From positions 584,465 to 648,464 of the forward strand of contig CAVYTM010000003.1 of NCBI GenBank assembly GCA_963771555.1: a stretch of DNA of 64,000 nucleotides, read 5' to 3'. Both the position numbers and the translations under genes were made by a program. Every line of letters begins with the position of its first letter. The stretch's first letter is position 1. This document shows, in pieces, positions 24,862 through 42,966 of the stretch. The DNA is from an uncultured Thermoplasmata archaeon (GTDB lineage: Archaea > Thermoplasmatota > Thermoplasmata > Lutacidiplasmatales > UBA184). The notes beneath the pieces are model-generated. The model searched no databases and had not been told where the DNA came from. It saw nothing but the letters and a program-made list of their open reading frames with translations.

Positions 24862-25302
24862 ATGCCCGTATCTGCACCGCCGCCGGATCTCCCCGAGCGG
24901 CCGTTTCGTTTCAGCCTCGAACGCACGATGAAGGCGAGTTGCTCGGCGATCTATCGGGCTTGGACCGAACAGTTCGAGCTTTGGTTTGCTGCGCCGGGCA
25001 CGGCCCGAATGTCCGGAAGGGTTGATTCACCCTTCTTCTTCGAGACTCAGTTCGAGGGCACGCGGCATCCTCACTACGGCCGTTTCCTTCGGCCCGAGCC
25101 CGAGAAGCTCGTGGTCCTGACCTGGGTAACCGCCGCGACGGGCGGAGTGGAAACGACCGTGACTGTCGAGCTGGAACCGCAGAAGAAGTGCATTCGGCTT
25201 CGCCTAACGCACTCCGGGTTCGCTGATGAGACCTCGATGCGTCGACATTCAGAAGCCTGGCGCCAGGTGCTCGCCCACCTCGATCAAGCCCTCGCTCGGT
25301 AG
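24862..25302 (+). CDS. SRPBCC/AHSA1-family protein
   Basis: [12 protein letters not shown]...VVLTWVT...TVELEP...LRLTHSGF pattern typical of Aha1-like SRPBCC domains. Confidence 0.7.
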
Positions 25303-25374
25303 CTCGCGCTCCCCCGGCAACCCCCGTGAGGGGGACGCGCGGGAACGAGCGGCAGACCCGCATCAGTCGCTTTG

Positions 25375-26451: not shown

Positions 26452-26516
26452 ACGGCCCCGGCTTAGAGTCCCTGGTAATGAAAAGTGATTCGAGCGAGTG
26501 AGACCTGCACGAGCGC

Positions 26517-27014: not shown

Positions 27015-27135
27015 GGTCCCATCAGCTCACTGCGACTCATCCCTTCTTCCTTTGGAGGGGTTTCCCCACGAGGTCCCCTGAACTCGAGGTCGAGGGCCAA
27101 CAATGCATGACCCGTCACGGTGGCGTAGAGACCAC

Positions 27136-27161
27136 GTAGGTGCAAGGGACATTGCACCTAC
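27136..27161. promoter_or_regulatory. Perfect 26-bp palindrome (10-bp arms, 6-bp spacer), candidate operator
   Basis: GTAGGTGCAA-GGGACA-TTGCACCTAC lies in the divergent intergenic region between 26517-27014 (-) and the GT2 gene at 27249 (+). A 22/26-identical copy sits at 42941-42966. Confidence 0.65.
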
Positions 27162-27248
27162 GGTGGCTCGTCGCTCGCCCGCTCCTATAGCTATGATTAA
27201 GGCGGCGGCCCACCTCCCCGACCTCGTCAATCCAGGGGGTCAGTTGAG

Positions 27249-28205
27249 GTGTCCACAGGGAGGGAGAACCGCGCCGGAAAGGTGGCCGTCTGCATGGTGG
27301 TTTACAATCACCTCCCGGACTTCACCGCCCTCGAGACCGCTTTGCGACATGCGGACAAGGTCGTCCTGATCGACAACGGGTCGTCCTCGGAGATCCGGGC
27401 GGAGCTCGACCGATTCGTCTCGCGTTTCCCCGACCGCATCCTTCTCTTGGAGAACGGGTCCAATCTCGGGCTCTCGAAGGCCTACAATCGAGCCTTAGCG
27501 GAGCTCAAGAAGCACGAAGTCCACTGGCTCTACTTCCTGGACCACGACGCGTCGTTCGGAGACCGGCTCTTCGAACAGACCCGAGCCGCGTGGACGGAGC
27601 TCGAAAGCCGAGGCTACCGCGTCGGGGTCGTCGTTCCCATCGCCACCGACGATCCTCGGCTGATGAACAGCACCCTGGGTCTTCGCCGGAAGTATGGTGA
27701 TGTGCGGACCACGATGACCTCGGGGATTCTTACCAATATGACGGTCTTCGAAGCCGTCGGTGGCTTCGACGAGCGCCTGTTCGTGGAGGCGGCCGACCTG
27801 GATTTCACGAGTCGAGTCGCGCAAGCCGATTACAAGGTATGCATCGTCAATCGCGTTCTGATCGTTCAGCAGTTCGGACTCTCACCGGCTCCGATCCGAA
27901 TGCCGGTCCGTCTCGGGGATCGCCTGATTCGCCTTCGCAGTCTCGTCCGGGTCGGGATCGGAAACTCGAACGAGTATCGGACGAAGCTCTTCTACTACCC
28001 GGATCACCGACACGCGGGTCATCTCCGTACCCTGCGCTGGATCATCCACCAGGGTTATCCTTGGAAGAACCTGGTCCGGCTGTCGTACTATCTGACCATC
28101 CTAGAGCACCTCTACGTGGCGAAGTTCGCCCTCCCTAACGGTACGGCCGGAGCGCCCGACCCGCTGTCGGAGAAGGCACCCACCCCCTCGGGGTTTGGAT
28201 CCTAA
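27249..28205 (+). CDS. Family 2 glycosyltransferase (rhamnosyltransferase-like)
   Basis: VAVCMVVYNH..., VVLIDNGSS, ENGSNLGLSKAYNRAL, FLDHDA (DxD). Confidence 0.8.
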   Translation: MSTGRENRAGKVAVCMVVYNHLPDFTALETALRHADKVVLIDNGSSSEIRAELDRFVSRFPDRILLLENGSNLGLSKAYNRALAELKKHEVHWLYFLDHDASFGDRLFEQTRAAWTELESRGYRVGVVVPIATDDPRLMNSTLGLRRKYGDVRTTMTSGILTNMTVFEAVGGFDERLFVEAADLDFTSRVAQADYKVCIVNRVLIVQQFGLSPAPIRMPVRLGDRLIRLRSLVRVGIGNSNEYRTKLFYYPDHRHAGHLRTLRWIIHQGYPWKNLVRLSYYLTILEHLYVAKFALPNGTAGAPDPLSEKAPTPSGFGS

Positions 28206-28206
28206 G

Positions 28207-28232
28207 CCTGGGACAGGGCGCCTTCTCCCAGG
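28207..28232. terminator. Hairpin between convergent genes
   Basis: CCTGGGA-N12-TCCCAGG sits directly after the GT2 stop and before the convergent GT-C gene end. No T-tract. Confidence 0.25.
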
Positions 28233-28286
28233 AACCACGCCGACCCTCTCCGCACGAACCGAGCGGGGGAAAACCCTGGGCCAGGA

Positions 28287-30992
28287 TCATTGCGGGGACG
28301 CACGAGCCATTCTAGGGTACCGAATGACCCCGAGGACTAGGATCGCTGGCGCCGCGATGGCTCCGTCGATCACCCACGTGAGATGGATCAGGGAGTGGGT
28401 CGAGGAAATCGTTAGACTGGTCAGAAGCAAGGTTAGGCCGGGGCCGACCGGACTCAACCTCCCGACCTGGAACCAGGGGGCAGCCGACGAGAGAACGATG
28501 GAACCGGCGGGAACCTTAACGGTCAGGGTGCTCGCGCCCGAATAATCGGCTTGGACCCAAGGAGAAGCGAACGGGGTGCAGGCCGCATCGTAGGTCGGCT
28601 CGGTGGAGAAGCCGCAGAGTGTCATGTTGGAAAGCATCGCGGGCGATCCGGTCGTGTAGAACGGCCCGACCATGGCACCCACAAAGTCGAATTCTTGAAA
28701 GAGGTTCACGGCCGGACCGGCATCCCCCAACGTCAGGGCCCCGCCCGCGTCAGGCTCGAAGCCCAGGGAGGGCAGGGGGAGACCGATTCCGTCCAGACTC
28801 AACGCGAGACGGTCGGACTCGGCCGTCACCGTGAACGAGTGCCACGATTCGGCGTTAACCGCCTGCGGCGGGGCAAACGTCCAGTTCGAGTGGGAAGACG
28901 GTTTCACTCCGGCGAAGTACAGCCCGTTCAATCCGAACAACTCGTACGACGCGTTTCCGATGAAGATCTCTGCGACGAGGTTCTGTGTTAACTGCACGCC
29001 CGCCCAACGGAAGTAGATGGTCAGGTTTCCGCCGGAGGCGACCCACGGGCCGACGTCGTATTCGGCATAGGAACTCCCGTTGAACGATGACCCCCGTACC
29101 GGGGTGCCCACGAACTGGGGTGAGGTGACGTTGACCGAGCTCACATTCTGCGACCCGACCGGGGTCAGCAGCGCGGAGGGTGACGGGGGAACGAAGGGGG
29201 TGACGAGGTTCAGTCCCGAGCTGCCGAGGCTGAGGACGGTCGTGTTGAACGCGAACCCCGGCTCCGACTGGACCCCGAGGTCGAGCGTAAGGTGGAGGCT
29301 TTCCGACGTCACGTCACGACTGAAGTTCACCGTTCGCCAGGGATTGTCCAGCGAAGCCGGATTGCCGTAGTTCGGAGCGATGACGATCTCGCGCCCTCCG
29401 GCGCTCAGCGCGTACGTGACCGTCGAGTTCGCGACCGGATAAGAGGCGAAGAAGCCCACGGGGAACTCCTGATCCCCATTCGAGGTCAGGGAAGGAGACG
29501 GGAGAGACGCGGTGGCCACTGTGAGGACGATCAAGACCGCAGCGGTCCCGACGAGGAGCGAGACTCGTCGCCCCTTCGGAAGTGCCCACCTCGGGCGCGC
29601 TACGCCGCCGAGACCTTCCCCGGAAACTCGAGGGGCGCTGTTCCGAGGAGTCAGCGTCTCGGTCGAGGAATCGATGGAGCTGGGATCTCCTTGGGGACGG
29701 CTGGTCCGAAGAACGAACAGTGCGAGGGCGGCTAGACCGCCCCACAACAGGACGTCCGAGAGCTGGGTCAGGGAGACAAAGTCCGGGACCATACTCCAGA
29801 GGACGAGCGCGTTGTGGAACTGGGGGTAGGAGAGGTAGAAGATTCCGGTCCCGGGTCCCGGCCCCGGCGAATCGAAAAGGTTCATCACGAACACCATGGG
29901 GATGAGGTAGGCCTCCACCAGCCACAGGCGGATGCCTTTCGCACTCGAGGGGTAAGCGAGCACGAGGGCGAGGAGTAGAAAGGGAAGGGGCCAGACGAAC
30001 TCATCACCGTTCAGGATGTCGAGGAACAAGAACGGCAGGACCATCGCGAGCGCGACCGACGTCACCCAGGAGGTCCCGCGCCACCAGAGCACGACCGGCA
30101 CCGCGACCTCGGCCACGACCAGGACGACCACGAATGCCTGGGCGAGGCCAACCTGAGCCGGACTCGCGGGCAAGAAGAGCGCGGGCTGAAGAAGCGTGAG
30201 GATCGAGTAGGGTGACGCGCTCACGAAGCCCGGCGTACCGGTGGAATTGGTCAGGAAGTTCCACCCGGGCAAGTAAAGGAACCCCAGGCCGAAGGCGGCG
30301 AGCGTTCCCGCCGTCCAAGTCAATCGACGCACCAGGGTGACTCGGTTGCCCGAATAAAGAAGCAGGGTTGGGAAGACGAAGATCGGGAAGTAGTAGAAGA
30401 ACGCGGCGAACGCGAGCAGCCCGAATCCCGCCAGCTCGACCCACGGACGGTCGTTGCCTCGCTCCTCGCGCAAGACGACATAGATTCCGGCCAACGTGAG
30501 GGCGATCCCCACGATGTCTTGCTCGACCCAGATGAAGGAGATGAAGAAGAGAACAGGACTGGTCAGCACGACGACCGTGAGACGGCGCGCGACGGTCGGA
30601 CGGCTGCCGCACAGCAGGGCGATCCGGCGGAGGAGCTCGCCCGAAGCGAGCAGTCCTACCAAACCGAACAGTTTCAACGAGAAATTCGCGGCGAACAGGC
30701 TGTGTCCGCTCAGGTTGTACACGGCGAACGCGGGGAGCACCACCGCAAACAGCCCGGGGGGTGGCGGGTACGGGAAGATCGCGTACGGGTTTCTGCCGAC
30801 GCTGAGGTAGCTCGCGGCCAGGAGGAACCGGGTCAGGTTGCCGGTATCAATGAACGGAAGGAAGGCCGCGAACGCGAGGACGAAGACGGCGAGCGAGAGT
30901 TCGACGACACGTTGTCGGAGGAAGCGACCTATTCGTCGCACGCCGGAATTGTTACCTTCCGACCGAGATCCTTCGGTCCTTGCGTCGGTCAA
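28287..30992 (-). CDS. Large GT-C-like membrane glycosyltransferase candidate with extracytoplasmic LamG/ConA-like C-terminal domain
   Basis: 901 aa. The N-terminal ~430 aa have about 12-13 helices and an early-loop motif (GRNPYAIFPYPPPPGLF) reminiscent of DUF2029/PMT-type GT-C enzymes. The C-terminal ~450 aa are beta-rich, with a LamG-like segment (NLTIYFRWAG...WHSFTVTAESDRLALSLDG). No WWDxG motif, so it is not a canonical AglB. Confidence 0.5.
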   Translation of the reverse strand: MTDARTEGSRSEGNNSGVRRIGRFLRQRVVELSLAVFVLAFAAFLPFIDTGNLTRFLLAASYLSVGRNPYAIFPYPPPPGLFAVVLPAFAVYNLSGHSLFAANFSLKLFGLVGLLASGELLRRIALLCGSRPTVARRLTVVVLTSPVLFFISFIWVEQDIVGIALTLAGIYVVLREERGNDRPWVELAGFGLLAFAAFFYYFPIFVFPTLLLYSGNRVTLVRRLTWTAGTLAAFGLGFLYLPGWNFLTNSTGTPGFVSASPYSILTLLQPALFLPASPAQVGLAQAFVVVLVVAEVAVPVVLWWRGTSWVTSVALAMVLPFLFLDILNGDEFVWPLPFLLLALVLAYPSSAKGIRLWLVEAYLIPMVFVMNLFDSPGPGPGTGIFYLSYPQFHNALVLWSMVPDFVSLTQLSDVLLWGGLAALALFVLRTSRPQGDPSSIDSSTETLTPRNSAPRVSGEGLGGVARPRWALPKGRRVSLLVGTAAVLIVLTVATASLPSPSLTSNGDQEFPVGFFASYPVANSTVTYALSAGGREIVIAPNYGNPASLDNPWRTVNFSRDVTSESLHLTLDLGVQSEPGFAFNTTVLSLGSSGLNLVTPFVPPSPSALLTPVGSQNVSSVNVTSPQFVGTPVRGSSFNGSSYAEYDVGPWVASGGNLTIYFRWAGVQLTQNLVAEIFIGNASYELFGLNGLYFAGVKPSSHSNWTFAPPQAVNAESWHSFTVTAESDRLALSLDGIGLPLPSLGFEPDAGGALTLGDAGPAVNLFQEFDFVGAMVGPFYTTGSPAMLSNMTLCGFSTEPTYDAACTPFASPWVQADYSGASTLTVKVPAGSIVLSSAAPWFQVGRLSPVGPGLTLLLTSLTISSTHSLIHLTWVIDGAIAAPAILVLGVIRYPRMARASPQ

Positions 30993-31001
30993 CGGGACGA
31001 C

Positions 31002-31967
31002 TCACACTGCCTTCGGGATGACGGGGCGGTCGTCCGACCGAAGGAACTCGACAAGCCCCTTGCGGATGGCCTGGAATCCGCCCGGTACTCTCCGGTTCAG
31101 GAGACCGTAGACGACCGCTCGTGCGCCGACGAATCCAAGCAATGTCCCACAGATGAACGGGCGGACCCGCCAGTGGCGCCGCACGACCTTGAGCGTATCG
31201 CGCGTCGAGTAGTAGAGTCTCCGCTCGTCCGCCTCCCGTAATTCGAAGAAGAGAGGCCCCCAGCGCAATCGCGAGGGCCGGCCGAGCGCGTGTCGGATGG
31301 TCGCGGCGGGAACCAAGTAGAGGGGCACGCCGATCCGCCATGACCGCAAACAAAACTCGGAGTCCACGGCATCCAAGAACAGACTCTCGTCAAAGAGCCC
31401 CGTCCTCTTCAGAACTCGGGAATCCAGCAGGAGCCCCGAGGTCATCGCCAGCGGACACCTTCGAAGGTCGGGAGTCTCCCCGCGGGCATACCGATAGAAC
31501 TCCTGCTCGAGCAGGCTCTGGAGAAGGGAGGGAATCTCCTCGATGTTGCGTGCGGCCAGCTCAACCGCCGGAAACCGGGCGGACAGTCGAAGGTAGCCGT
31601 CGACGAGCGTCGGGACCGCGCCCGGCCCAAGGACCGAATCCTGGTCCAAGAGCAGGAAGAGTGAGTGTCCTTCTACGAGCCCTTGCGTCAATCCCACATT
31701 CAGGGCCCGCGACAACCCTACATTTCCATGACGCTCCGCGACCTTCGGGGGAAGACCGTCCCGCGTGAGCTGCCCCTCACCGGCCACGCGGTCGACTACG
31801 GCCTGTGACCCCGGATCGGTGGAGTTATCGACCACGATCAACCGGTCGAGTTGCGTCGCAGCCGCGCGAACCGCCGCACGCAACAGAGCCTCGTCCGCCT
31901 GGTAAGTGACCATGATGCCGCAGATCCGAGTTGGTTGGGGGGAGGGCTTGGTCGCCGGATCGGTCAC
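31002..31967 (-). CDS. Family 2 glycosyltransferase (rhamnosyltransferase-like)
   Basis: ICGIMVTYQ..., LIVVDNSTD, HGNVGLSRALNVGL, LLDQDS (DxD). Start is GTG 31967 or ATG 31913. The tracked extension to 32579 overlaps the upstream gene end and is not credible. Confidence 0.8.
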   Translation of the reverse strand: MTDPATKPSPQPTRICGIMVTYQADEALLRAAVRAAATQLDRLIVVDNSTDPGSQAVVDRVAGEGQLTRDGLPPKVAERHGNVGLSRALNVGLTQGLVEGHSLFLLLDQDSVLGPGAVPTLVDGYLRLSARFPAVELAARNIEEIPSLLQSLLEQEFYRYARGETPDLRRCPLAMTSGLLLDSRVLKRTGLFDESLFLDAVDSEFCLRSWRIGVPLYLVPAATIRHALGRPSRLRWGPLFFELREADERRLYYSTRDTLKVVRRHWRVRPFICGTLLGFVGARAVVYGLLNRRVPGGFQAIRKGLVEFLRSDDRPVIPKAV

Positions 31968-32152
31968 GGGGATCCTGGGACGCGCACGAATGGTGGAGCA
32001 CCCCGCGTGGCACAGGGTGCGCCGGTCATAATCCTGTTGGGAGGTCGACTCCCGTCGTGAGGGGGAAACGTCGCACGCGGGCACCCGGCAAGGCCCGTCC
32101 CTAGGTCCGGACCCGCCGCGTCGATCGCGGAGCCGAGGCCTCCTCCGGAGGA

Positions 32153-32845
32153 TCACCCGAGGGCGATGTAGCTGGCCGCAAACGGTTCGAGCGTCGAATA
32201 GGCGGAATCCTCGTACGCTCCGGTCACCACCCCTTTCGCCCAAGTCAGGAGCCCCTGGTACGATGTTCCATCCGTGAACGAGGACGGATACGCGGCCTGC
32301 AGGTCGGATCGGCTGTCGTAGATCATCATCAGGGCGTAGTAATAGCCGAACGGAGTGAGCGTCGAAGCCGCGCTGTCGGAGATCGTACCGTTGACCACGT
32401 TCCCGGCCCAATTGACCAGCTGTGTGAAGTTGGCGAGGCTGGTGAGCGCGTCCGGGAAGGCGGCTTGCAGGTCCGATCGGCCGTCGTAGACCAGTATCAG
32501 GGCGTAGTAGTAGCCGAACGGAGCGAGCGTCAGGCTCGCGCTGTCGGTCCACGCTCCTGTTGCCACGCCACCGGCCCAATTCACGAGCAGCGTGTAGCTG
32601 CCGAGGCTGGTGAACGCGTCCGGGAAGGCGGCCTGCAGGTCCGATCGGCCGTCGTAGACCAGCATCAGCGCGTAGTAATACCCGAACGGGGCGAGCTGCG
32701 TGCGGGCACTATCGGTCCACTCCCCCGTCACCACGCCCCCGGCCCAGTTCACCAACCCGAGGTAGGAAGTGAGGTTCGAGGACACATCCGGAAAGGCTGC
32801 CTGCAAGTCCGGTCGGTCATTGTACACGGTAAACAGCTCCGCGAT
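32153..32845 (-). repeat. 4 tandem 56-aa units forming the C-terminus
   Basis: 168-bp period visible in the DNA: 28 identical nt at 32467 and 32635. The array ends PFAASYIALG-stop. Confidence 0.9.
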
Positions 32846-35509
32846 CGCGGCCACCCCACCGGGCGCCACCGGAGTCATGGTCACTGCAACGGCCTGCCCC
32901 GCGCCGGTCACGACGACCGACCCGCTCAACGGGGACCCGGTGTAACCGATCGGGGCGGTCACGTTGTAAGAGTACGTTCCGTTCGTTTCGGCGAACACGA
33001 TCGAGGAGGCGTTCGAGCTCTCGTTCGTGCCGTGGAGACCAACCGACCATGTGGTGCCGGCCGCCAATCCGTTCTCAGTGAAGTTCACCGTGTTGACGTA
33101 TCGGTTCCCCCACAGATACCAGGTCTGTTCACCAGTTCCCCCGATCATCACGTTCGTGTTGATCCGGGCCGGGTTGACCCAGACGGCGTAGGAGTACGAA
33201 GTCACTGGCTGGTCCGCGTAGACGTAGAGGGCAAGTCCATTCGCGACGTGCTCGAGGAGATTGTAGTAGAGTACCCGCTCCGGCCCCACCGGCATCGATG
33301 CTGCCTGAGTCGATGCCCACGTCATGACGGAGTAGGCGGTGCCCTGGCAACCGTTCGGGATGACCGCGGTCGTCGAGGGAACGTTCGCCCAGTAGACGAG
33401 GTTCGCGAAAGTGTCCGCGTCGTGCGTCGAGCAACCGTTGTAGCTTCCGCCAAAGTCCTGTCCGACGAACGTCTCGTTGAGTGCGGGAGTGTAGGTGTAC
33501 GACCCGTCGGGCAAATAGAACGGGGTCATGTAATCCGTCGGGTCCGGGTAGTCGGGTAGCCACCCGTCGACCGACGACGTGCAAGCGCCCGTGCCGGGGG
33601 ACGAGCCGAGGCAGAGCGTAATGAGCTCGGTGAACGTCGGATCCCACCGGCTGGGTTGGAGGGCGCCCCCGGTGATCGTGTTCACGATTTGGTTCCAGGC
33701 GTCGATTCCCTGGTCGAACGCCGTAGCTCCCTGCTCCGACACCAACGGGAAATTACACGTCACGGACTGGCAGGCCACGGCTTCTGGGTCGTAGTACGGG
33801 CTCGACGGGTTGGTGATCTGAGCCCACCACCAGGCGGCGCTTCCGGGGGTCGAGGGGTTCGTGTTCGGGTTCATCCAGGCCCCGGTGGTAGTGTTGAGAC
33901 CCGGCCACGAGATGTTGGTGGGATAGTAATTGCCGAGGCCCTGCGGGATTGCGCCGCCAACGCCCTCGATGAACGGTTGCCCGTCGACCGTGTTGTACTG
34001 CGTGATGAAGGAGTTGTACGGGAACGACTGGGCGAGGAATTCCCGCATCCCCACGTAAGAGAAGAAGTTGGCCGGAATGTTCGTCGTCAACCCCGAGTCA
34101 GTTTGGGTGGCGCTGGGGTCGAACTGGTAGGCGAACCCCTCGGGGAACAGATTGAGCGTCGGAATCGTGAGGAACCCGATCTTCCCTTCGGATTGTAAGT
34201 TCAGCCCGACCGGAAGGTCGACCGGGGAGATGGTGGCCGCGTCGGCCTGCCCCGCCCCGTACTCCGATAGGCCCACCGTGTCGTTCGGCTCCCAATAAAC
34301 CTGGACCGTCGATAGATACCTTCCGGCCGCGGGTTCGCAACCGCCGCCCACCCCGAGGCAACCCGTCGGCTGTTGATATGCCGGATTCGCCTTTAGGGTG
34401 TACCCCACCGACGTATTGACGAAGTCCACGTAGTACGGCCCACTCCCGGTCGTGTTCCAACGGACCCCCGGCTGCGGAGCGTAATAGTTGTCACCGAGCA
34501 GGATGGTAGAATCGTACAGGATCGGCGAAGCGGCGTCCACGTAGGACTTGAATGCCGAGGTGTTCGTGCTGGTCACGCCGCCGGGCAGTGTGCATGGGCC
34601 ATCACCGTTGGCCGCGTTAGAGCTGAAGCCGGGGACCGTGGCGTTCTGGGCAGTGAACCATCCGCACGGGACGACCGAACCTCCTTGTGCATCGGCCACA
34701 AATTGAAGAAATTCGGGCCAGACGGCGCCCGAACCATTCGCGTCGAACGTGATGCAACCGTGGCCGCTGGTCATCGCCGCCGCGGGACAGTAAGCGCTGT
34801 CGTTCACTAGCATCGCATTGAGGATGTGCTGAGGGGTGTTGTTCCAGGGGATATGGACCGCACCGTCCCAGGCGCCGTTACCGAAGGGGAGCAGCGACTG
34901 CCCGAGAATCCATCCGTTGTACGAATACTGACTCGGGGTCTCGAGCCACATCAGAGTTCGCGCGATCGAGAACATCACGTCGGAGGGGTAGACCCCCCAC
35001 GAAGCACCCGTGCCCGGGTCATAGAATCGTGCGGCGGAGTCGATGGGGAATGTCCAATAGTTACCCACCTTCAAGTCGTTGCCGTACTGGGACTGGCAAG
35101 AGGTGGGGCCGGACGCGGCGGGACCCGGCACGCACTTCGACAGTTCGGGCACGTAGTTGGCGGTGCTCGAGCCGTTGTAGGTGACAAGGGTTTGGTACAC
35201 ATTTAGAATGACCTCGCTACCGACCGATTCGTAGTCCACCGCAGGATCCAGCGAGGTCGCAGGCGAGACAGGAACCTCATAGATCGCCAACGTGCCAGGG
35301 TGAGGACTGCTGACAGCAGCGCGAATCGGAGCGGGGGTTGCCGCCGAAGGACCGGCGGGCTGACTCGCGGCCGGGGTCGCCGTTCCGGCGCTAGTCGCGG
35401 AGGCGTGCGACGGCGAGATGCTTAACGGTTGAAAAGAGCTCAGAAGAAGAACTGCAATCACGGCCAGAACCATTACCCCGGCGCTCCAGGCTCGGTGCGA
35501 TCCTTTCAT
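32153..35509 (-). CDS. Secreted surface protein: signal peptide, family-5 solute-binding-protein-like head, FxEnGL beta-sandwich, 4 x 56-aa repeat
   Basis: The N-terminal region TSLDPAVDYESVGSEVILNVYQTLVTYNG...YVPELS...WTFPIDSAARFYDP...PSDVMFSIAR follows the SBP_bac_5 pattern. NFTENGLAAGTTWSVGLHGT... then the repeat array. Many NxS/T sequons. Confidence 0.85.
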   Translation of the reverse strand: MKGSHRAWSAGVMVLAVIAVLLLSSFQPLSISPSHASATSAGTATPAASQPAGPSAATPAPIRAAVSSPHPGTLAIYEVPVSPATSLDPAVDYESVGSEVILNVYQTLVTYNGSSTANYVPELSKCVPGPAASGPTSCQSQYGNDLKVGNYWTFPIDSAARFYDPGTGASWGVYPSDVMFSIARTLMWLETPSQYSYNGWILGQSLLPFGNGAWDGAVHIPWNNTPQHILNAMLVNDSAYCPAAAMTSGHGCITFDANGSGAVWPEFLQFVADAQGGSVVPCGWFTAQNATVPGFSSNAANGDGPCTLPGGVTSTNTSAFKSYVDAASPILYDSTILLGDNYYAPQPGVRWNTTGSGPYYVDFVNTSVGYTLKANPAYQQPTGCLGVGGGCEPAAGRYLSTVQVYWEPNDTVGLSEYGAGQADAATISPVDLPVGLNLQSEGKIGFLTIPTLNLFPEGFAYQFDPSATQTDSGLTTNIPANFFSYVGMREFLAQSFPYNSFITQYNTVDGQPFIEGVGGAIPQGLGNYYPTNISWPGLNTTTGAWMNPNTNPSTPGSAAWWWAQITNPSSPYYDPEAVACQSVTCNFPLVSEQGATAFDQGIDAWNQIVNTITGGALQPSRWDPTFTELITLCLGSSPGTGACTSSVDGWLPDYPDPTDYMTPFYLPDGSYTYTPALNETFVGQDFGGSYNGCSTHDADTFANLVYWANVPSTTAVIPNGCQGTAYSVMTWASTQAASMPVGPERVLYYNLLEHVANGLALYVYADQPVTSYSYAVWVNPARINTNVMIGGTGEQTWYLWGNRYVNTVNFTENGLAAGTTWSVGLHGTNESSNASSIVFAETNGTYSYNVTAPIGYTGSPLSGSVVVTGAGQAVAVTMTPVAPGGVAAIAELFTVYNDRPDLQAAFPDVSSNLTSYLGLVNWAGGVVTGEWTDSARTQLAPFGYYYALMLVYDGRSDLQAAFPDAFTSLGSYTLLVNWAGGVATGAWTDSASLTLAPFGYYYALILVYDGRSDLQAAFPDALTSLANFTQLVNWAGNVVNGTISDSAASTLTPFGYYYALMMIYDSRSDLQAAYPSSFTDGTSYQGLLTWAKGVVTGAYEDSAYSTLEPFAASYIALG

Positions 35510-35568
35510 GGTACTACTCCATGTTCAAACTTCATTCGCCCGCGGTTCTTGGGGCACTCGGTGTAGAA

Positions 35569-35575
35569 CGATAAA
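35569..35575 (-). promoter_or_regulatory. TATA box upstream of 32153-35509
   Basis: Minus strand reads GGGTTTATCG, about 63 nt upstream of ATG 35509. Same TTTATC core as other promoters here. Confidence 0.4.
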
Positions 35576-35749
35576 CCCATCGAAGTCCGGTCCACCGGGC
35601 ATCACACCCTCGCCCTGACTATCGCCCCTCCGTCGCCTTCGTCCTCTATCGACGAAGGCTGCCATGGCACGCGAGAGGGCCGGCCGGGAAGGGCGCAAGT
35701 CGCCTCCCGGTGGCTCGCGGGCGTAGCGACGCATCCAGGGGGTCGGCTC

Positions 35750-36442
35750 CTATCCTAGCGCCTCGTAACTCGCCGCGAAAAGCAAAAGTGTGGTCTTGGC
35801 GGAGTCCGTGATCGTTCCGCGCACTACGGCGTCCGCCCACGCGAGCAGTCCTGCGTAGGAGGCTCCGTCCGTGAACGCGAACGGGAACGCCGCCTGCAGG
35901 TCGGACCGACCGTCGTAGACCTTCAACAGGGCGTAGTAGTACCCGAACGGGGTGAGCTTCGCCATGTCGCTATCGAAGAATGAATCGTTGACCACCCAGC
36001 CGGCCCAGTTCACGAGCAGTGTGAAGTTGGTCAGGTTGGTGAACGCCTGCGGGAACGCCGCCTGGAGGTCCGTGCGGCCGTCGTAAACATTCATCAGGTC
36101 GTAGTAGTAGCCGAAGGGAGAGAGCGTCGCGTTGGCGCTGTCGACCCACTCTCCAGTAACGACGCCGCCCGCCCAGTTCACCAGTTGAGTGTAGTTGGTC
36201 AGGTTCCCATAGGGCTCGGTAAACGCCGCTTGCAGGTCCGAGCGACTGTTGTAGGTCATCAGTAGCGCGTACCAGTACCCGAACGGCGAGAGGTCCGAAT
36301 AATTGGTGTCGGAGAAGGCGTGCGTGACCACGCCTCCGGCCCAGTTCACGAGCCCCGTGAAATTAGTGAAGTTGATGAACGCGGCCGGGTACGCAGCCTG
36401 CAGGTCCGGCCGGTCGTCGTACACCGCATACAGCGCGGACAC
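35750..36442 (-). repeat. 4 tandem 56-aa units forming the C-terminus
   Basis: Units start AVYDDRPDLQ, ALLMTYNSRSDLQ, DLMNVYDGRTDLQ and ALLKVYDGRSDLQ. The array ends LFAASYEALG-stop. Confidence 0.9.
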
Positions 36443-38965
36443 TGGCGTCGGCGGTGTGTATTCCGAGCTGAACGTGATGTTGATCGGTTGGTGCGGGTCG
36501 GGCACCGTGACCGTTCCGAACGTAGGGGTCGAAGTATACCCCGGAACTGGACCGATCGTGAACTGGTAGCTGCCGGCGAACTCGGTGAATCCGATCAGCG
36601 GGGAGAAGGATGTCATCTCAGTGCCGTTGAGAGTAACGCTCCAAGGTGTTCCCTGGCGAAGGCCGGTCTCTTGGAAATCAACCGGGTAGCTAGGGACGGG
36701 TCCGACCGTGATGAGGGCGTCGCCGGTCGAATCCGACACGTAGAGATCGCCGGTCACCGGGTCGTATGCGATTCCCTCGACGTAGTAGCCTCCACCGGCC
36801 TCCAGGTAGAGGGGGCTTCCCGAGAGAGCGACGTAAGTCGTGGCGTTGAACGCATCGATCACGTTCTCGAAGGATTCGGCATTGTAGATCGTCTCGGTCC
36901 CGCTATCGTAGGCCAGGATGTACGGGTCGACGAGCGGCACCGAGTGGACCACCTTGAGGGTCGAGTCGTCGATCACGCTGACATTGCCCGAGCCCAGGTT
37001 GGCGACGAAGACGGTGTGGTTCTTCGAATCGACAACGATGGAGTCCGGTTCGCTGCCCACATCGATCGTCCTGAGTTTACTATCGTTCGACGCCCCCCAC
37101 ACGGTGACGTTGTTGTCGCCACGGTCGGCGGCGTAGACCTCGTTGGTGCGCGCGTCGTAGGCTATCGCGTCGAGTTGGGCGACGGGCTTGACCTTGAGGC
37201 TGGTGGTGTTCAACGTGTTGGTCGACGTATTGATGATGCTCACGTTGCCATTGTAGTCGTTGGCGACGAACAGCCGCTTGCTCGCGTTGTCGTAGGCGAG
37301 CGCGTCCGGATATTGTCCGACGTTGATCGTGGTCAGCAGCGTGTGGGAGGAGCTGAACACCTCCACGGCGGCCACGGCGGAGTCGGCGGTGTAAATGTCC
37401 CCGTTCGCCCCGTCGTAGGCGACGGGGGCCTCGACCGACGTACTTGTCGGATGCGGCCCACCGACGTCCACGCCGACCACTTGGTCTGCGGCGGCATTGA
37501 CCTCGTGGACGTCGTTGCCCGCCGAGTCCACGGAGTAGAGAGCTTTTTGGGCGGCGTCGTACGTCACGCCGGTCGGATAGACTGCGATCGGGATCGACGC
37601 GATGGAAAGACCGGTCGCTTCGCTGAGGACGGTAACGTTCGGCTCGAGATCCGAGGTCCCCCCGTTCGCCACGTAGCCGTCGCCGGTCCCTGGGTCGACA
37701 ATCACGGCATACGGACCGTCTTCGGTCGAAATGTTGGCGATCGATTTGTGCGTCGAGCCGTTGATCACCGTGATGTTGCCGATGCCACTCGGACCTCCAT
37801 TGTAGGCCGAAATGATCACGTTCCCATTCACCGCGTCATACGCGGTAGCGGACGGCCCGGCACCCTGGCCAATGATTCCGCTCGACGATACGACCGTGTT
37901 ACTCGGTTGCTGGATCACGGTGAGCAATCCTTGTCCACCCGCGACGAACAGTTGGTTCTGGGCCGGGTCGTACGCAAACGATTCCGCGTACAGCGCCACG
38001 GACACGTTGGTCACGACAGGTGCCGAGGCGGTAGCGGAGAACACACTGACATCGGCAAGCGAACGGCCGGTGTTGTTCAGCACGTCGATGAGGTCGTTCT
38101 TCGTGTCAATTGCGAGGGCTATCGGTTCGGGTCGCACCGTGGCGGACGCGACCACCCTGTTGGTGACGGGGTTGATGATCGAAACGTTGGAGGAACCATA
38201 GTTCGTGACGAATACCCGGTTGGCCGGTGAGTCGTAGGCCACCGCGAGGGGGTCGGTCCCTACGGGAATGCTCGCAACCGACTTGTTGGTGGTTCCCGAG
38301 AACACCGTGACGTTGGCGGTGCCGAAGTCGGCGACATACAAATCGTGGTTTCTCCAATCGAAGGCAATACCATGAGGGCCACCCCCGACCGGTAGCGAGC
38401 CGGTGACCGTCTCGGAGGTCCCGCTGATGATGCTCACGTTGGACGAGGACCCTGCGTTGGTGGCATAGAGAGTTCCCGTCTCGTTGTCCACCGCCACCGA
38501 GGGGACGTTGAAGGTCGCCTGATTGTCGACCGGAACGGGAATATTGGCCACGTCGGTGAACGTAGAGGCGTTGATCACCGAAAGGTCGTTGGCCGTGCCG
38601 CCGCGGACGTAGATGTTTCCGTTCGAGGGGTCGTAGGTCGCGGTTTCCTGCTGGAGATTGCTTTGAACCGGAAGAGCACCGGGGCCGGGATACGCTTGAT
38701 TCGAGGAAAGGTCCAGTCTCGATAGAACGACGCCAATCCCGCCGGAAGGGTTCAAGGCGGGGAGTGCCGCGGAAACCGTAACCGCCTCGTGGGAGGCCGC
38801 ATGTCTCGAGATCGTCCCGACGGTGGCTGGGACCCGGAGGACCGCGGGAGCAACGACCGTCGCCAAGAGCACGACCGCGACCAGGAGCACGAGAGCTGTC
38901 GGTACGAGCTTCGATGCACGGCGAAGGGGCGAACTCATCCCTGCGGCGAATCGAATTGCGTTCAT
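35750..38965 (-). CDS. Secreted surface protein: YVTN-family beta-propeller repeats, FxETGL beta-sandwich, 4 x 56-aa repeat
   Basis: Signal/anchor helix, then about 700 aa of ~40-residue repeats of the YVTN type (e.g. LYATNAGSSSNVSIISGTSETVTGSLPVG, RVFVTNYGSSNVSIINPVTNRVVAS, RLFVANDYNGNVSIINTSTNTL). VDFQETGLRQGTPWSVTLNGT... then the repeat array. Confidence 0.85.
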   Translation of the reverse strand: MNAIRFAAGMSSPLRRASKLVPTALVLLVAVVLLATVVAPAVLRVPATVGTISRHAASHEAVTVSAALPALNPSGGIGVVLSRLDLSSNQAYPGPGALPVQSNLQQETATYDPSNGNIYVRGGTANDLSVINASTFTDVANIPVPVDNQATFNVPSVAVDNETGTLYATNAGSSSNVSIISGTSETVTGSLPVGGGPHGIAFDWRNHDLYVADFGTANVTVFSGTTNKSVASIPVGTDPLAVAYDSPANRVFVTNYGSSNVSIINPVTNRVVASATVRPEPIALAIDTKNDLIDVLNNTGRSLADVSVFSATASAPVVTNVSVALYAESFAYDPAQNQLFVAGGQGLLTVIQQPSNTVVSSSGIIGQGAGPSATAYDAVNGNVIISAYNGGPSGIGNITVINGSTHKSIANISTEDGPYAVIVDPGTGDGYVANGGTSDLEPNVTVLSEATGLSIASIPIAVYPTGVTYDAAQKALYSVDSAGNDVHEVNAAADQVVGVDVGGPHPTSTSVEAPVAYDGANGDIYTADSAVAAVEVFSSSHTLLTTINVGQYPDALAYDNASKRLFVANDYNGNVSIINTSTNTLNTTSLKVKPVAQLDAIAYDARTNEVYAADRGDNNVTVWGASNDSKLRTIDVGSEPDSIVVDSKNHTVFVANLGSGNVSVIDDSTLKVVHSVPLVDPYILAYDSGTETIYNAESFENVIDAFNATTYVALSGSPLYLEAGGGYYVEGIAYDPVTGDLYVSDSTGDALITVGPVPSYPVDFQETGLRQGTPWSVTLNGTEMTSFSPLIGFTEFAGSYQFTIGPVPGYTSTPTFGTVTVPDPHQPINITFSSEYTPPTPVSALYAVYDDRPDLQAAYPAAFINFTNFTGLVNWAGGVVTHAFSDTNYSDLSPFGYWYALLMTYNSRSDLQAAFTEPYGNLTNYTQLVNWAGGVVTGEWVDSANATLSPFGYYYDLMNVYDGRTDLQAAFPQAFTNLTNFTLLVNWAGWVVNDSFFDSDMAKLTPFGYYYALLKVYDGRSDLQAAFPFAFTDGASYAGLLAWADAVVRGTITDSAKTTLLLFAASYEALG

Positions 38966-39005
38966 CGCGAGCTTGCCCAGCGGCCCCCTTGCGAGATCGC
39001 CTCGC

Positions 39006-39869
39006 CTATCCGCGTGCCTCGTACTCCGCCGCGTACGGCAGGAGAGTCGAGGACGATGAGTCCGTGAAGTCGCCGAGGACCATGTCGGCCGCCCAGGTCA
39101 GCAACCCCTGATAGGAGCCGCCGTCCGTCGCAGCCAGTGGGAAGGCCGCATTCAGGTCCGCGCGGTTCTCGTAGACCAGCCCAACCAGGGCGTAGAAGTA
39201 ACCAAAGGGCTGGAGAGTGGCGTTCGCGCTATCCGAGATGGTACCGTTCACCACCGCGCCGGCCCACCAGAGCAGTCCTCCCTCGGAATCCCAATTCGTA
39301 AAGGCATCGGGGAACGCGGCCTGAAGGTCGGAGCGGTTGTCGTAGATAGTCATCAGGTCGTAGTAATACCCGAACTTCTGGAGCGTCGAGTTGGCGCTGT
39401 CGTTCCACTCCCCCATCACCACACCCCCGGCCCAGTTCACGAGCAGCGTCCAGTTGGTGAGGTTGGTGAGTGCGTCTGGGAAGGCGGTTTGTAGGTCCGA
39501 GCGATTGTTGTACGTCAACATCAGCGCGTACCACGGACCGAACGGGGCGAGCGTCGATGCGCTGCTATCGGCGAACGAATCATTAACGGCGTTTCCTGCC
39601 CAATCCACGAGCTGACCGAACGTCGTCCACACGCCGTACGCGTTCGGGAAGGCCGCTCGCAGGTCGGCACGATCGTTGTATGTCGCCATCAAAGTGTACC
39701 AGAAGCCGTACGGGGCGAGCGTCGTGTAGTTGAGGTCGGAGATTTGTCCGTCGACCACGCTCCCCGCCCAGCTCACCAATTCGGTAAAGTTCGCGAAACT
39801 CCCGTTCGCGTCCGGGAAGAGGGTTTGCAGGTCCGGCCGTTGGTCGTAGACCGCATAGAGCTCGGCGAT
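39006..39869 (-). repeat. 5 tandem ~56-aa units forming the C-terminus
   Basis: Units start AVYDQRPDLQ, TLMATYNDRADLR, ALMLTYNNRSDLQ, DLMTIYDNRSDLQ and LVGLVYENRADLN. The array ends PYAAEYEARG-stop. Confidence 0.9.
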
Positions 39870-42818
39870 CGCGCCGATCACCAGTCCCCCTGGGCCCAGG
39901 GTGATGGTCACGTTCTCTCCACGCGCGGAATCGTAGACCGATAGCGGGCCGTTCGAAGGAGCCGCGGTGGAGCCTACCGGTGGAATCACTTCGTACCAGT
40001 ATACTCCGTACGGAACTGAGAACGTAATCGTTGAGGCGCTAGAATTCTCGGGGGTTCCATTCAGAAGTACAGTCCACGATGCACCGGGGGTCAATCCGGT
40101 CTCATTGAATGTGACGTTGTACGGCGTGGGCGTAACAAAGAAGGGTGCCGTCGTTCCGTTGTTCACGTTCGGGTCCGTCAAGTTCGTCCCGTTGACGACG
40201 ATGGTGTCGATCTGGGCGCCGGGGATTTCGGGGGTGAACGTCCCGGTGCAGGTCATATTCCCCCCAGGATAGATGTCATACCCCGGGCAAGAGAGCGGGC
40301 CGTCCAGACTACCAGTCGCGTTGATACTGTAGATAGCCGAGGTTCCCACATTGGTGATTGTGGTGTTATCCTCGACTTCATGACCCGCCGCCACGGGGTT
40401 CGGCGTGATCGTACTGGAGAGCTGAAGCGCGGAGGGGTTCGCGAGCGCGATGACCTCGGCCGCGCCGACGCTCACCGAGATGGCTGACGGGTCGAGGTTC
40501 ACGATCCGGAACGACGGGTCGATGGTCAGGGCAGCGCTTCCGAGCGCGGTGTCTTCCACCGTAGCACCGATCATCTCGGAAAGATAGAGTGAGTCCCCGC
40601 TCGAGATTGTTGTGTCCGGTCCGAAGAATACCGGAGGCGGGCTTTGGAAATCGAGCGATGCACTGCCCAGGGGGTTACAAACATACGACGGATCGGGCAG
40701 AAGGGGCGGACAGGTGCCGCAGGAGCCGGCGCATGCCTCAGCCCCGATACTCCCGGACGCGCAGGCGTAACCGTAACTGGTGGGCTGGTCCAGATCGCAC
40801 ATCTCGTAACTCCCCCCGGCAAGTGCCTCCGCGGCGCCCTGGCAGCCGCCGTTGCTGTCGTCGCAGTAGGCTTGGACGTCACCTGCGATGTTGAGCGAGA
40901 TCCCGAGGCAATCGAGCAGATTTCCCGGGTCGGGGTTGCCGGAAACGTCGCACTGCCCTGTGACAGTGACCGTATCGGCGATGAACACGGACCCAACGGC
41001 GTCACCGCCGTTGGTCGACGTCCCGGTCGCGGCAATCTCCCCCGTGGGTGCGTTTCCCATCACGCTGAAGGCGTCACTGGCGTCCACGGGCCCGTCGGAT
41101 CCAATGGCATATCCGCTCACGTGCTCGGAGAAGCTCGCGGTCTGAGTGCCCATCCCCCCCGTTTCTCCCGATGTGTTCTTGCAGAATTGGCAGGTCCAAC
41201 CGAACGGAAGTTCCGCGACGACGCCGTTCGCGAAGGCATCGAACTGGTCTCCGGCAAGGCCGATGGCCACGTTGTAGAACCCATACGTGGGCGCGTTCAG
41301 CGCATCGCCGTCGTACTGCGCACCCATGACGATGGGGGAAGAGCAACCCTGAAAGGAATCGCTGGGGCACGACGTATAGTAGATTGGGGGACTGTAGTAC
41401 GTGACGGAGCAAGTGCCGCCCACCAACGTGCAGGTGGTTGGCGCGAAGAACCCCGTCTTGGATGGCATGTACGTGTTGTAGGGGGTCCAAGTCACGACCC
41501 CCCTCGGGGAGCTACCGGTCACGTCCGCGGTGCAGCTGCTCGACGTCGTCACGAACGACGGATTGCAGGAAACAACGACGGTGGGGGTCGTGATGAGCAC
41601 GACCAGAAGCGAGTCGGTTCCTGAGCCAGCCAGATTGTACGTATCACCGCTGTAATCCCCCGTAATCGTGGGGAGGCCTGGCACGGAGTCGGCGTAAGAG
41701 ATTGTGCACTGGCTCGTCGTGTTCAGAGTGCAGGTCGTGGTGGGGGTGTAGCCGTACTCCGTGCCGAGCCAGACCCAGGTGAAGAACACCCCCGTGGTGC
41801 TGGAGGACGACCAGGTCACGGTGCCTGTGGGAGCGTACTCCGCTCCGGGGTCCGTTACAGTGGCCGTACAGTTCGAGGAGGCCCGTAGATAGTAAAAGGG
41901 GGCATAGGAATTGGACGTGCCAATCGGGTTCGGGGAGCAGCCGACCACGGTGGTGGTCTGGCCGCCCGTGTCCGTGAACTCGTTCGTCGAGGTGATGGCA
42001 CCAAATGCCGGGTCGGTGGCGATCACCGGATACGTTCCCGCCGGTACCGAGTCGGGAATCGTGAAATCGCAGGTGAACTTGCCCGTCGAGCTTGTGACAT
42101 CACTGCCCCCGGAGCACGCGATTGCCACTGAGTCAATCGTGATGGGACTGATGGTCGTGCTATTGGTGAAATAGGAGCCTCCGACACTCGTGGCGGTCCC
42201 CACGATGCCGGTCTGCGGGTACCCAATCGTGAGTTGGGGCACCTGCAGAGTGGCGCTGGTCGTCCTGAAACTTGTGGACCCGCAATCATTGTTAAAATCC
42301 TGGGCTGTGATGTTGTAGGTCGCGGGGACATACCCCGGGCCGGCCGGCGGCAGGACTAACTTCACACTGAAGGTGCCGTTGGAGGGCGACACGAAGGTCA
42401 CCGGCGCGGTTCCAGCAAACTGGTACGGGCCGGACTGGCCCGTCACACCCCAGTAGATGCTGAGAGTCGTGAAGTATGGGTAATACCCCGATCCGTTGAT
42501 CCAATATTGCACCCCACCGGGTCCGCTCGATTGGTTGACCTTCGCGGTGGCATGATTTCCGAAATTGCACGGATTGGGTGGCCCCCCCGCGAGGGTCAGG
42601 CGCCCACCCGGGTGGGGGCCTGACGTAGAAATCCCACCGAAGGCGGGAGGGAGCACGAACGCGAACCCAGAGACGAGGAGGCCGATCAGACCCACCACAA
42701 GAACGATCCTCCGTGAGTCAGGACGGCGGAACCTGCTTCCCTGAACTCGAGAGACGCCCTGTTGGTAGGAAGCTCCGGCGTTGTCCGGACGACTTCTTCC
42801 GACGTCACCAGTCTGCAT
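39006..42818 (-). CDS. Secreted surface protein: Ig-like/Cys-rich multidomain head, FNETGL beta-sandwich, 5 x 56-aa repeat
   Basis: Start taken at ATG 42818 (MQTGDVGRSRP...), which precedes a hydrophobic helix (IVLVVGLIGLLVSGFAFVL). The tracked start 42962 lies inside the palindromic motif. Several Ig-like modules carry Cys pairs, with a Cys-rich segment (CQGAAEALAGGSYEMC...CAGSCGTC). NVTFNETGLTPGASWTVLLNGT... then the repeat array. Confidence 0.85.
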   Translation of the reverse strand: MQTGDVGRSRPDNAGASYQQGVSRVQGSRFRRPDSRRIVLVVGLIGLLVSGFAFVLPPAFGGISTSGPHPGGRLTLAGGPPNPCNFGNHATAKVNQSSGPGGVQYWINGSGYYPYFTTLSIYWGVTGQSGPYQFAGTAPVTFVSPSNGTFSVKLVLPPAGPGYVPATYNITAQDFNNDCGSTSFRTTSATLQVPQLTIGYPQTGIVGTATSVGGSYFTNSTTISPITIDSVAIACSGGSDVTSSTGKFTCDFTIPDSVPAGTYPVIATDPAFGAITSTNEFTDTGGQTTTVVGCSPNPIGTSNSYAPFYYLRASSNCTATVTDPGAEYAPTGTVTWSSSSTTGVFFTWVWLGTEYGYTPTTTCTLNTTSQCTISYADSVPGLPTITGDYSGDTYNLAGSGTDSLLVVLITTPTVVVSCNPSFVTTSSSCTADVTGSSPRGVVTWTPYNTYMPSKTGFFAPTTCTLVGGTCSVTYYSPPIYYTSCPSDSFQGCSSPIVMGAQYDGDALNAPTYGFYNVAIGLAGDQFDAFANGVVAELPFGWTCQFCKNTSGETGGMGTQTASFSEHVSGYAIGSDGPVDASDAFSVMGNAPTGEIAATGTSTNGGDAVGSVFIADTVTVTGQCDVSGNPDPGNLLDCLGISLNIAGDVQAYCDDSNGGCQGAAEALAGGSYEMCDLDQPTSYGYACASGSIGAEACAGSCGTCPPLLPDPSYVCNPLGSASLDFQSPPPVFFGPDTTISSGDSLYLSEMIGATVEDTALGSAALTIDPSFRIVNLDPSAISVSVGAAEVIALANPSALQLSSTITPNPVAAGHEVEDNTTITNVGTSAIYSINATGSLDGPLSCPGYDIYPGGNMTCTGTFTPEIPGAQIDTIVVNGTNLTDPNVNNGTTAPFFVTPTPYNVTFNETGLTPGASWTVLLNGTPENSSASTITFSVPYGVYWYEVIPPVGSTAAPSNGPLSVYDSARGENVTITLGPGGLVIGAIAELYAVYDQRPDLQTLFPDANGSFANFTELVSWAGSVVDGQISDLNYTTLAPYGFWYTLMATYNDRADLRAAFPNAYGVWTTFGQLVDWAGNAVNDSFADSSASTLAPFGPWYALMLTYNNRSDLQTAFPDALTNLTNWTLLVNWAGGVVMGEWNDSANSTLQKFGYYYDLMTIYDNRSDLQAAFPDAFTNWDSEGGLLWWAGAVVNGTISDSANATLQPFGYFYALVGLVYENRADLNAAFPLAATDGGSYQGLLTWAADMVLGDFTDSSSSTLLPYAAEYEARG

Positions 42819-42869
42819 CGGCACTCTTCGGAGTTGCCAGCGGCTACTCGGGAGCGGGTAGCCTAGTCG

Positions 42870-42878
42870 GGGGATAAA
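42870..42878 (-). promoter_or_regulatory. TATA box upstream of 39006-42818
   Basis: Minus strand reads GATTTATCCCC, about 56 nt upstream of ATG 42818. Identical to the TTTATCCCC box at 47050. Confidence 0.45.
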
Positions 42879-42940
42879 TCCGTGTATAGGCGCATTCCGA
42901 GGTCTCAAGGGCCGGTACGGACAACGGTCCTCAGGGCGGC

Positions 42941-42966
42941 GCAGGTGCAACGGGCATTGCAACTAC
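42941..42966. promoter_or_regulatory. Second copy of the 26-bp palindromic motif
   Basis: Minus strand GTAGTTGCAATGCCCGTTGCACCTGC versus GTAGGTGCAATGTCCCTTGCACCTAC at 27136-27161 (22/26 identical). The motif ends 122 nt before ATG 42818, against 121 nt before ATG 27014. Confidence 0.65.

Follow-up and report, generated by a model that had tools for sequence, protein, structure and literature searches.

The S-layer homology (SLH) domain binds a secondary cell-wall glycan non-covalently, and genes for the modification of that glycan are often found nearby. Its tandem units, of approximately 55 residues and largely helical, stand at one end of S-layer proteins and of unrelated exoenzymes. Choline-binding and CWB2 repeats are rich in aromatic residues and hold interchangeable enzymes and adhesins on a surface glycopolymer; CW_7 (Cpl-7 repeats) and PG_binding_1, three-helix modules of approximately 45-60 aa that occur singly or in tandem on many enzymes, bind a glycan polymer. 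The anchors on record for archaea are transmembrane (TM) helices, lipid anchors, and PGF-CTERM tails, and to our knowledge the surface retention of secreted enzymes, binding proteins, and adhesins in wall-less and S-layer archaea such as the Thermoplasmata is poorly understood. Here we analyze a 64,000-nucleotide stretch of DNA from an uncultured Thermoplasmata archaeon (the window; assembly GCA_963771555.1, contig CAVYTM010000003.1, positions 584,465 to 648,464), in which four proteins, A to D, carry tandem arrays of a 56-aa unit, predicted to consist of three helices, that is probably a new glycan-linked surface module.

Four genes carry arrays of one 56-residue unit

Anchoring on the motif R-x-D-L, we find 4, 4, 5, and 4 units in the open reading frames (ORFs) A, B, C, and D, 17 in total. 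A hidden Markov model (HMM) of the unit, run over all six frames of the window, returns exactly these 17 units with independent E-values (i-E) of 4e-24 to 5e-31 (1e-28 to 5e-31 in the array of A) and nothing beyond them at E<1. An earlier description of the window, made from its letters alone (the sequence-only reading), had drawn the same four ORFs with the same numbers of units, and its array coordinates match ours to within 9 nucleotides (nt). The genes and their parts are as follows:

32153..35509 (-), gene A, 1118 aa: N-terminal hydrophobic segment, S/T/P/A-rich linker, SBP_5-like head, pre-module, array
32153..32854 (-), array of A: N-cap unit, 3 full units, C-cap helix (PFAASYIALG), and stop codon
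32870..33094 (-), beta-sandwich pre-module of A: approximately 75 aa, NFTENGLAAGTTWSV...; 8 strands in the AlphaFold2 model (model residues 7-81)
35750..38965 (-), gene B, 1071 aa: N-terminal hydrophobic segment, YVTN/NHL beta-propeller head, pre-module, array
35750..36451 (-), array of B: 4 units and C-cap helix
36470..36688 (approximate) (-), beta-sandwich pre-module of B, which aligns with that of A
39006..42818 (-), gene C: hydrophobic segment, Cys-rich head, pre-module, array
39006..39878 (-), array of C: 5 units and C-cap helix
39891..40121 (approximate) (-), beta-sandwich pre-module of C, from the same pre-module alignment
19263..21524 (+), gene D, 753 aa: hydrophobic segment, linker, three fn3 domains, array, C-terminal domain
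20346..21062 (+), array of D: internal, with 4 units and a half unit, without a pre-module and with a beta-rich tail of 153 aa after it

The ORF of C is listed as 39006-42962 (-) with a TTG start; the likely start is the ATG at 42818.

The unit has a period of 56 aa, with one spacing of 57 aa and one unit of D extended to 62 aa by a 6-aa insertion. Pairwise identity between units averages 52% (range 35-73%), and ten positions are invariant in all 17 (L7, Y11, R14, D16, L17, L34, W37, A38, D48, and L54); across 82 diverse units, five of them remain so (L7, R14, D16, L17, and W37). The signature of the module is L..(V/I)Y..R.DLQ..FP...(8-12)...L..WA, in which P22 joins L7, Y11, R14, D16, L17, L34, W37, and A38. 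The arrays are acidic (approximately 20 D+E vs 6-8 K+R), free of cysteine, and 14-18% aromatic.

The two ends of each array are distinctive. The first unit lacks the aromatic FGYYY segment, and each array closes with a half unit, which is the true C-terminus of A, B, and C (PFAASYIALG, LFAASYEALG, and PYAAEYEARG) and in D is internal, with 153 residues beyond it; both features had been described correctly in the sequence-only reading. The segment corresponding to FGYYY is 61-85% aromatic in 287 units that are preceded by a unit and 11-14% aromatic in 192 first or solitary units; aromatic FGYYY is a junction feature of tandem units. Last units compared across proteins share 63% identity, whereas units of one protein share 50%, indicating that the ordered array has been inherited as one domain and was not amplified unit by unit.

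Between genes, the DNA of the arrays is only 67-78% identical, and the longest common exact word is 29 nt. An independent Logan assembly matches window positions 22153-36504 with 1 mismatch and contains an identical protein A. Together, this divergence and the agreeing assembly exclude an assembly artefact as well as recent gene conversion. Contigs L001, L007, L008, and L009, which come from relatives and from the same strain, terminate within arrays. Arrays thus fragment short-read assemblies, and array proteins are probably undercounted in the databases.

The heads of the four proteins differ. B has a YVTN/NHL propeller (TIGR02276, E 5e-37) and D three fn3 domains (E 1.6e-23); A matches SBP_bac_5 weakly (E 0.019), and a truncated cluster representative of A passes at 4e-7. 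A family search with the head of C gave no match; an ortholog of C in locus L002 shares 40% identity over 907 aa. According to a Kyte-Doolittle scan, a single hydrophobic segment lies at the N-terminus of each of the four proteins; in A and D, a linker rich in Ser, Thr, Pro, and Ala comes next. The same scan detects no hydrophobic segment at the C-terminus of A-D or of 28 close homologs, in agreement with the earlier claim that the four proteins lack a C-terminal TM helix, and the NCBIfam models of sorting signals (PGF-CTERM-type tails) do not match the array proteins.

The arrays are predicted to form a capped helical solenoid

An alignment of 16 pre-module-plus-array sequences was used as input for AlphaFold2, resulting in a model with a mean predicted local distance difference test score (pLDDT) of 92.6 and a predicted template modelling score of 0.82. 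In this model each unit consists of three helices of approximately 19, 6, and 15 residues, with pLDDT mostly >90 in the array of A, and the units stack into one continuous, all-alpha, solenoid-like domain. The long first helix starts approximately 6 residues ahead of FGYYY and crosses the unit boundary; the repeat phase therefore differs from that drawn in the sequence-only reading. In the first unit this helix is shortened to 13 residues. This phase accounts for both ends of the arrays: with no unit ahead of it, the first unit has no FGYYY, and the closing half unit is a lone first helix that caps the last unit. Accordingly, the model shows the shortened first unit as a predicted N-terminal cap and the lone first helix as a predicted C-terminal cap.

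The pre-module of approximately 75 aa, which had been recognized earlier in A, B, and C, is indeed present in these three proteins and absent from D; AlphaFold2 predicts it to be an eight-strand beta-sandwich. Its pattern, F.E.GL..GT.W.V...G, has no Pfam model, and many copies of it follow the array in the homolog P0035 (residues ~390-850). This beta-sandwich looks like a common unannotated surface domain of the Thermoplasmata.

A Foldseek search of the PDB with the pre-module-plus-array model returned no match at E<=1e-3. The beta-sandwich has only weak matches (E ~0.06) to DUF3823 and Ig-like sandwiches, and the helical part has insignificant ones to WapL, Ric-8A, and the ARM domain of SPIN90 (probability <0.25, template modelling score 0.12-0.2, E >0.3).

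The module belongs to no known family

Neither Pfam nor NCBIfam contains a family that matches the arrays (full proteins at E<=0.1, arrays alone at E<=10). Pfam matches to SLT_2, POTRA_TamA_1, HUTI, and RraA are short, fall under the curated cut-offs, and are inflated by the repeats; we took them as chance. Among relatives without a head or fused to an enzyme, no Pfam or NCBIfam model covers the module either. The unit profile, compared with the sequences of the PDB, gave only a chance match to a GST (E 0.83), and a full-text search of the literature returned nothing relevant on the motif RPDLQ or on Thermoplasmata surface proteins with rhamnose. The suspicion that the unit lies outside any named family thus holds for Pfam, NCBIfam, PDB sequence profiles, and Foldseek alike. 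It constitutes a new domain family of a familiar type, namely modular repeat arrays common to surface proteins; its tandem-array subtype has a shortened first unit, an F/Y-G-Y-[YW]-Y junction, and a terminal half unit approximately 9 residues from the C-terminus.

The closest analogs differ from the module in sequence and in architecture. SLH (PF00395) gave no profile match with full proteins (E<=0.1) or arrays (E<=10); it forms a pseudo-trimer from a fixed triplet, whereas the present arrays have 3-8 units in a predicted capped, continuous solenoid. Moreover, the present host has no peptidoglycan-linked polymer, and its module also occurs singly on cytoplasmic-type enzymes. The choline-binding repeat (CW_binding_1, PF01473) and CWB2 (PF04122) likewise have no profile match to the arrays. 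Choline-binding repeats place their ligand sites between consecutive repeats, a parallel to the junction-specific aromatic residues described above, but they are beta-hairpins of approximately 20 aa, and CWB2 is an alpha/beta domain of approximately 90 aa in triplicate, in contrast to an all-alpha unit of 56 aa. The analogy to choline-binding, CWB2, and SLH repeats drawn in the sequence-only reading is therefore one of function only and does not extend to the fold. For CW_7 (PF08230) and PG_binding_1 (PF01471) there was no profile match at E<=10 and no Foldseek match; these are independent bundles joined by linkers, whereas the first helix of the present unit crosses the unit boundary, and their ligand is peptidoglycan, which is not present in these archaea. 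ARM and HEAT repeats resemble the arrays in that two or three helices per repeat stack into a continuous superhelix, but they are mostly intracellular protein-binding scaffolds, and Arm, HEAT, TPR, and Sel1 have no Pfam match to the arrays.

Relatives of the module on exoproteins and on glycan enzymes

The profile of the 17 window units alone was searched exhaustively against 1.84 billion representative proteins, of which 257 match at E<=1e-3 and 53 at E<=1e-30. The top ~50 matches have the same type of array, with 3-8 units ending mostly 9-12 residues from the C-terminus. Their heads include FG-GAP, PQQ, and other propellers, PKD, beta-helix, pro-kumamolisin, LamG, NosD, SBP_5, and TIG domains. 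The idea of interchangeable heads is therefore confirmed by the many unrelated extracellular domains of the close homologs. When a collection of genome contigs was scanned with a single protein, only one other genome matched, a metagenome-assembled genome of the Thermoplasmata.

Divergent matches differ in that they have mostly 1-3 units, fused to glycan enzymes. Examples are a GT2 glycosyltransferase (P0074, 1e-24), a sulfotransferase (P0090, 1e-14), a GT4 glycosyltransferase (P0095, 5e-13), CmcI (P0103, 4e-11), and a further methyltransferase (P0019, 9e-10), and units are also found at the C-terminus of PMT-type GT-C enzymes. Among 110 divergent representatives, the partner domains are GT2 (19 representatives), GT1/4 (10), Methyltransf_24 (8), Rhamnosyl O-methyltransferase/CmcI (6), Methyltransf_11 (6), PMT/PMT_2 (4), Peptidase_S8 (3), TylF (2), TOD1/MUCI70 (2), Sulfatase (2), Sulfotransferase (1), and RgpF (1). 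Secreted subtilases and an LVIVD/cadherin adhesin also carry divergent arrays (P0051, P0056, and P0049). These matches show that the window arrays are the tandemly expanded, secreted form of an unmodelled module, single copies of which sit on enzymes that build or modify glycans. Archaeal surface proteins are not the only carriers of the module, as solitary copies sit on cytoplasmic-looking enzymes.

A conserved glycosyltransferase cluster adjoins the array genes

Downstream of gene A, the window encodes a GT2, a membrane protein of 901 aa, and another GT2 in the opposite orientation:

31002..31967 (-), GT2 glycosyltransferase, the next gene after A and the first of the conserved cluster
28287..30992 (-), conserved membrane protein of 901 aa with a polytopic N-terminal half, an extracellular jelly-roll of ConA/LamG type, and a TM helix at the C-terminus
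27249..28205 (+), the cluster's second GT2, encoded on the other strand

In locus L005, an array gene is followed by a 1153-aa fusion (1696-5157) of a GT2 and a homolog of the membrane protein (51% identity with the 901-aa protein over 877 aa), and then by a GT2, RmlD, and a sugar nucleotidyltransferase. As an independent test of synteny, we began from the homologs of the membrane protein and then inspected their contigs. In L007, L008/L009, and L010, the GT2 is directly preceded by the C-terminal part of an array protein or by a complete one with 4 units; in L011, there is no array at the expected place upstream of the cluster. Of 6 distinct contexts, 5 therefore have an array gene beside the GT2 / membrane protein / GT2 cluster (present in the window, L005, L007, L008/L009, and L010; absent in L011), and the GT2 downstream of the array gene holds the same position in L005, L007, L008, and L010. 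The heads found at this position are mutually unrelated or absent, indicating that what is linked to the cluster is the array, whichever head it carries. After the core of the cluster, L007 (5083-8658) and L008 (7155-10743) encode a full dTDP-rhamnose set (RmlC, RmlD, RmlB-like, and RmlA); no dTDP-rhamnose genes lie beside the cluster in the window.

Other glycosyltransferase genes accompany array genes elsewhere. L004 has a different cluster (GT2, GT-C-like, GT2, and TylF), and both of its array genes are headless. L006 lies on an unrelated contig of 3.2 Mb with a GC content of 52.7% and has a variant subtype of the unit (1-2260, 6001-11769, and 16400-17767). Here, two adjacent giant LVIVD/cadherin surface proteins, each ending in 8 nearly identical variant units, adjoin three large GT2/GT1 genes, one of which bears a unit (E 1.5e-15); in this multi-domain GT2, a coiled-coil-like repeat follows the unit.

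The 901-aa membrane protein has 12 homologs among 5.8 billion proteins and no family in Pfam. In its model, with a moderate pLDDT of 62, the extracellular half gives fold matches to LG domains, GH16, PL7, and galectins (E 1e-5 to 1e-3). We considered a GT-C or oligosaccharyltransferase and found no support for this assignment, as Pfam is blank and the moderate model has fold matches only for its jelly-roll half. The protein may be a new glycan transfer or processing protein.

In organization, though in nothing else, the present loci resemble the S-layer glycosylation (slg) loci of bacteria and those of bacterial adhesins with dedicated glycosyltransferases, in which a surface-protein gene lies beside glycosyltransferases, a polytopic membrane protein, and dTDP-rhamnose genes. 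They differ in that several surface proteins with unrelated heads have the linked module in common and in that the membrane protein matches no known oligosaccharyltransferase or GT-C.

Possible functions of the module

The association of the module with glycans, which the sequence-only reading had proposed from the cluster next to the arrays, is well supported by synteny in 5 of 6 contexts with varying heads and by the fusions to glycan enzymes. We tentatively favor, at somewhat less than even confidence, the explanation that the module recognizes a glycan or lipid-linked glycan and that the arrays keep diverse heads in the glycan coat of the cell, as the patterns of sequence and gene order suggest. 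The module would bind a glycan or a lipid-linked glycan intermediate. On enzymes, the solitary unit would bring the catalytic domain to its glycan substrate; on exoproteins, the multivalent array would attach non-covalently to the cell's own surface glycoconjugate, which would probably contain rhamnose and be the product of the adjacent GT2 / membrane protein / GT2 cluster. Such binding could retain solute-binding, propeller, Ig-like, and protease heads in the coat of an organism that has no wall polymer. Glycan recognition would explain the solitary units on enzymes, the units on PMT-type GT-C proteins, and the arrays on exoproteins beside a glycan cluster, and the presence of the module on cytoplasmic-type enzymes and secreted proteins alike would follow if the ligand, for example a lipid-linked glycan, were available on either side of the membrane. 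We also count in its favor the predicted extracellular ConA/LamG-like domain of the membrane protein, a fold associated with carbohydrates. The fuller proposal, that this is a predicted glycan or lipid-linked-glycan-recognition domain of archaea and bacteria and that the arrays form a new non-covalent display system on a rhamnose-type glycan made by the adjacent cluster, is more doubtful.

Several observations weigh against glycan recognition. The array genes of L002 and L003 have no glycosyltransferase neighbors; glycan genes are common in these genomes, and the synteny of 5 in 6 is a raw count. Residues L7, Y11, L17, L34, W37, A38, and L54 fit a structural core as well as they fit a ligand site, and R14, D16, and D48, which lie at helix ends, fit a capping pattern equally well. 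The N-terminal hydrophobic segment could itself be the anchor, which would place the arrays far from the membrane. In D and P0035, the array is internal. Finally, there are headless proteins that consist of a hydrophobic segment and an array only (P0002 and P0020-22), which suggests that the array has a role of its own. The last three points also count against a simple version of the common stalk or anchor proposed in the sequence-only reading, which is at most a candidate role for the arrays.

Some of these points fit a second explanation, which we regard as unlikely on balance: the arrays could bind each other or a partner, for example the jelly-roll of the 901-aa protein, and so build a surface coat or complex, while the solitary units on enzymes could dimerise or dock subunits of a glycan-assembly complex. 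Alpha-solenoids are usually scaffolds for protein interaction, and the weak fold matches of the arrays are to ARM/HEAT-type proteins. The headless proteins are plausible coat subunits; array genes occur in clusters of paralogs (window, L002, L004, and L006); and if the N-terminal segment is the anchor, the arrays at the far end could make lateral contacts. In large glycosyltransferase, methyltransferase, and sulfotransferase proteins, the units adjoin coiled-coil-like stretches. However, cytoplasmic and extracellular copies cannot have one partner, such that protein assembly needs two unrelated sets of partners, and it leaves unexplained both the near-exclusive choice of glycan enzymes as partner domains and the fact that synteny tracks the array rather than the head.

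The adjacency of arrays and glycosyltransferases could also be read in the opposite direction, with the array as the acceptor that the adjacent cluster decorates with a rhamnose-type glycan, forming a protective stalk resistant to protease and acid. The loci would then resemble S-layer genes beside slg clusters, or serine-rich adhesins beside dedicated glycosyltransferases; in Geobacillus, slg clusters with rml genes adjoin the S-layer gene. N-x-S/T sequons recur in the arrays at the fixed loop columns 34, 37, 50, and 58, with 1.3-4.1 per 100 aa, and the array genes lie close beside both the GT2 / membrane protein / GT2 cluster and rhamnose genes, which fits an acceptor role. Yet the density of sequons is not consistently higher in the arrays than in the heads (1.3 vs 1.9 per 100 aa in A), the sequons are not conserved across the wider family, and the solitary units on cytoplasmic-type methyltransferases, GT2/GT4, and a sulfotransferase are left without an explanation; we consider a glycosylation target quite improbable. 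An inert spacer, that is, a rigid rod without a ligand that sets the distance between domains, would agree with the regular helical repeat predicted by AlphaFold2 and with a copy number that ranges from 3 to 8, but it is very unlikely, as 4-5 three-helix repeats would span only a few nanometres (estimated from typical solenoids), the array is terminal in most proteins and has nothing to space, and strong conservation of the signature extends from bacterial-type enzymes to archaeal exoproteins, with the synteny conserved as well.

Other genes of the window

The last 153 residues of D, C-terminal to the array (21063-21521, +), form a beta-rich domain with no family match. Beside the glycosyltransferase cluster, a 165-aa ORF (26517-27014, -) with an N-terminal hydrophobic segment is also a called gene in L001; a family search with it gave no match. 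An 811-aa secreted protein (43610-46045, +) has a match to the bait region of alpha-2-macroglobulin (E 8e-6) and ends in a C-terminal TM helix and a proline-rich tail, a classical C-terminal TM anchor, unlike the array proteins. A 3489-aa ORF (48492-58961, -), a giant surface protein without the 56-aa module, has approximately 18 PKD domains together with Y_Y_Y, filamin, and InlK_D3-type Ig repeats. The sole RNA gene that ARAGORN and Rfam find in the window is a tRNA-Lys (CTT; 17095-17170, +).

Significance

Whatever its mechanism, neither Pfam nor NCBIfam includes the domain family; with a model of it, several hundred clusters of 'hypothetical' proteins could be annotated, and an unmodelled accessory domain would be flagged in many enzymes of the GT2, GT4, methyltransferase, and PMT types. 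A common C-terminal module, with copies on glycan enzymes and a conserved glycan cluster beside it, is a testable candidate for a glycan-based system of display or assembly. If glycan recognition is true, Thermoplasmata-type archaea, and probably also another archaeal lineage, that of L006, would hang many unrelated exoproteins on a dedicated surface glycan, and the module would be a functional counterpart of SLH and the secondary cell-wall polymer (SLH/SCWP) in organisms without a cell wall.

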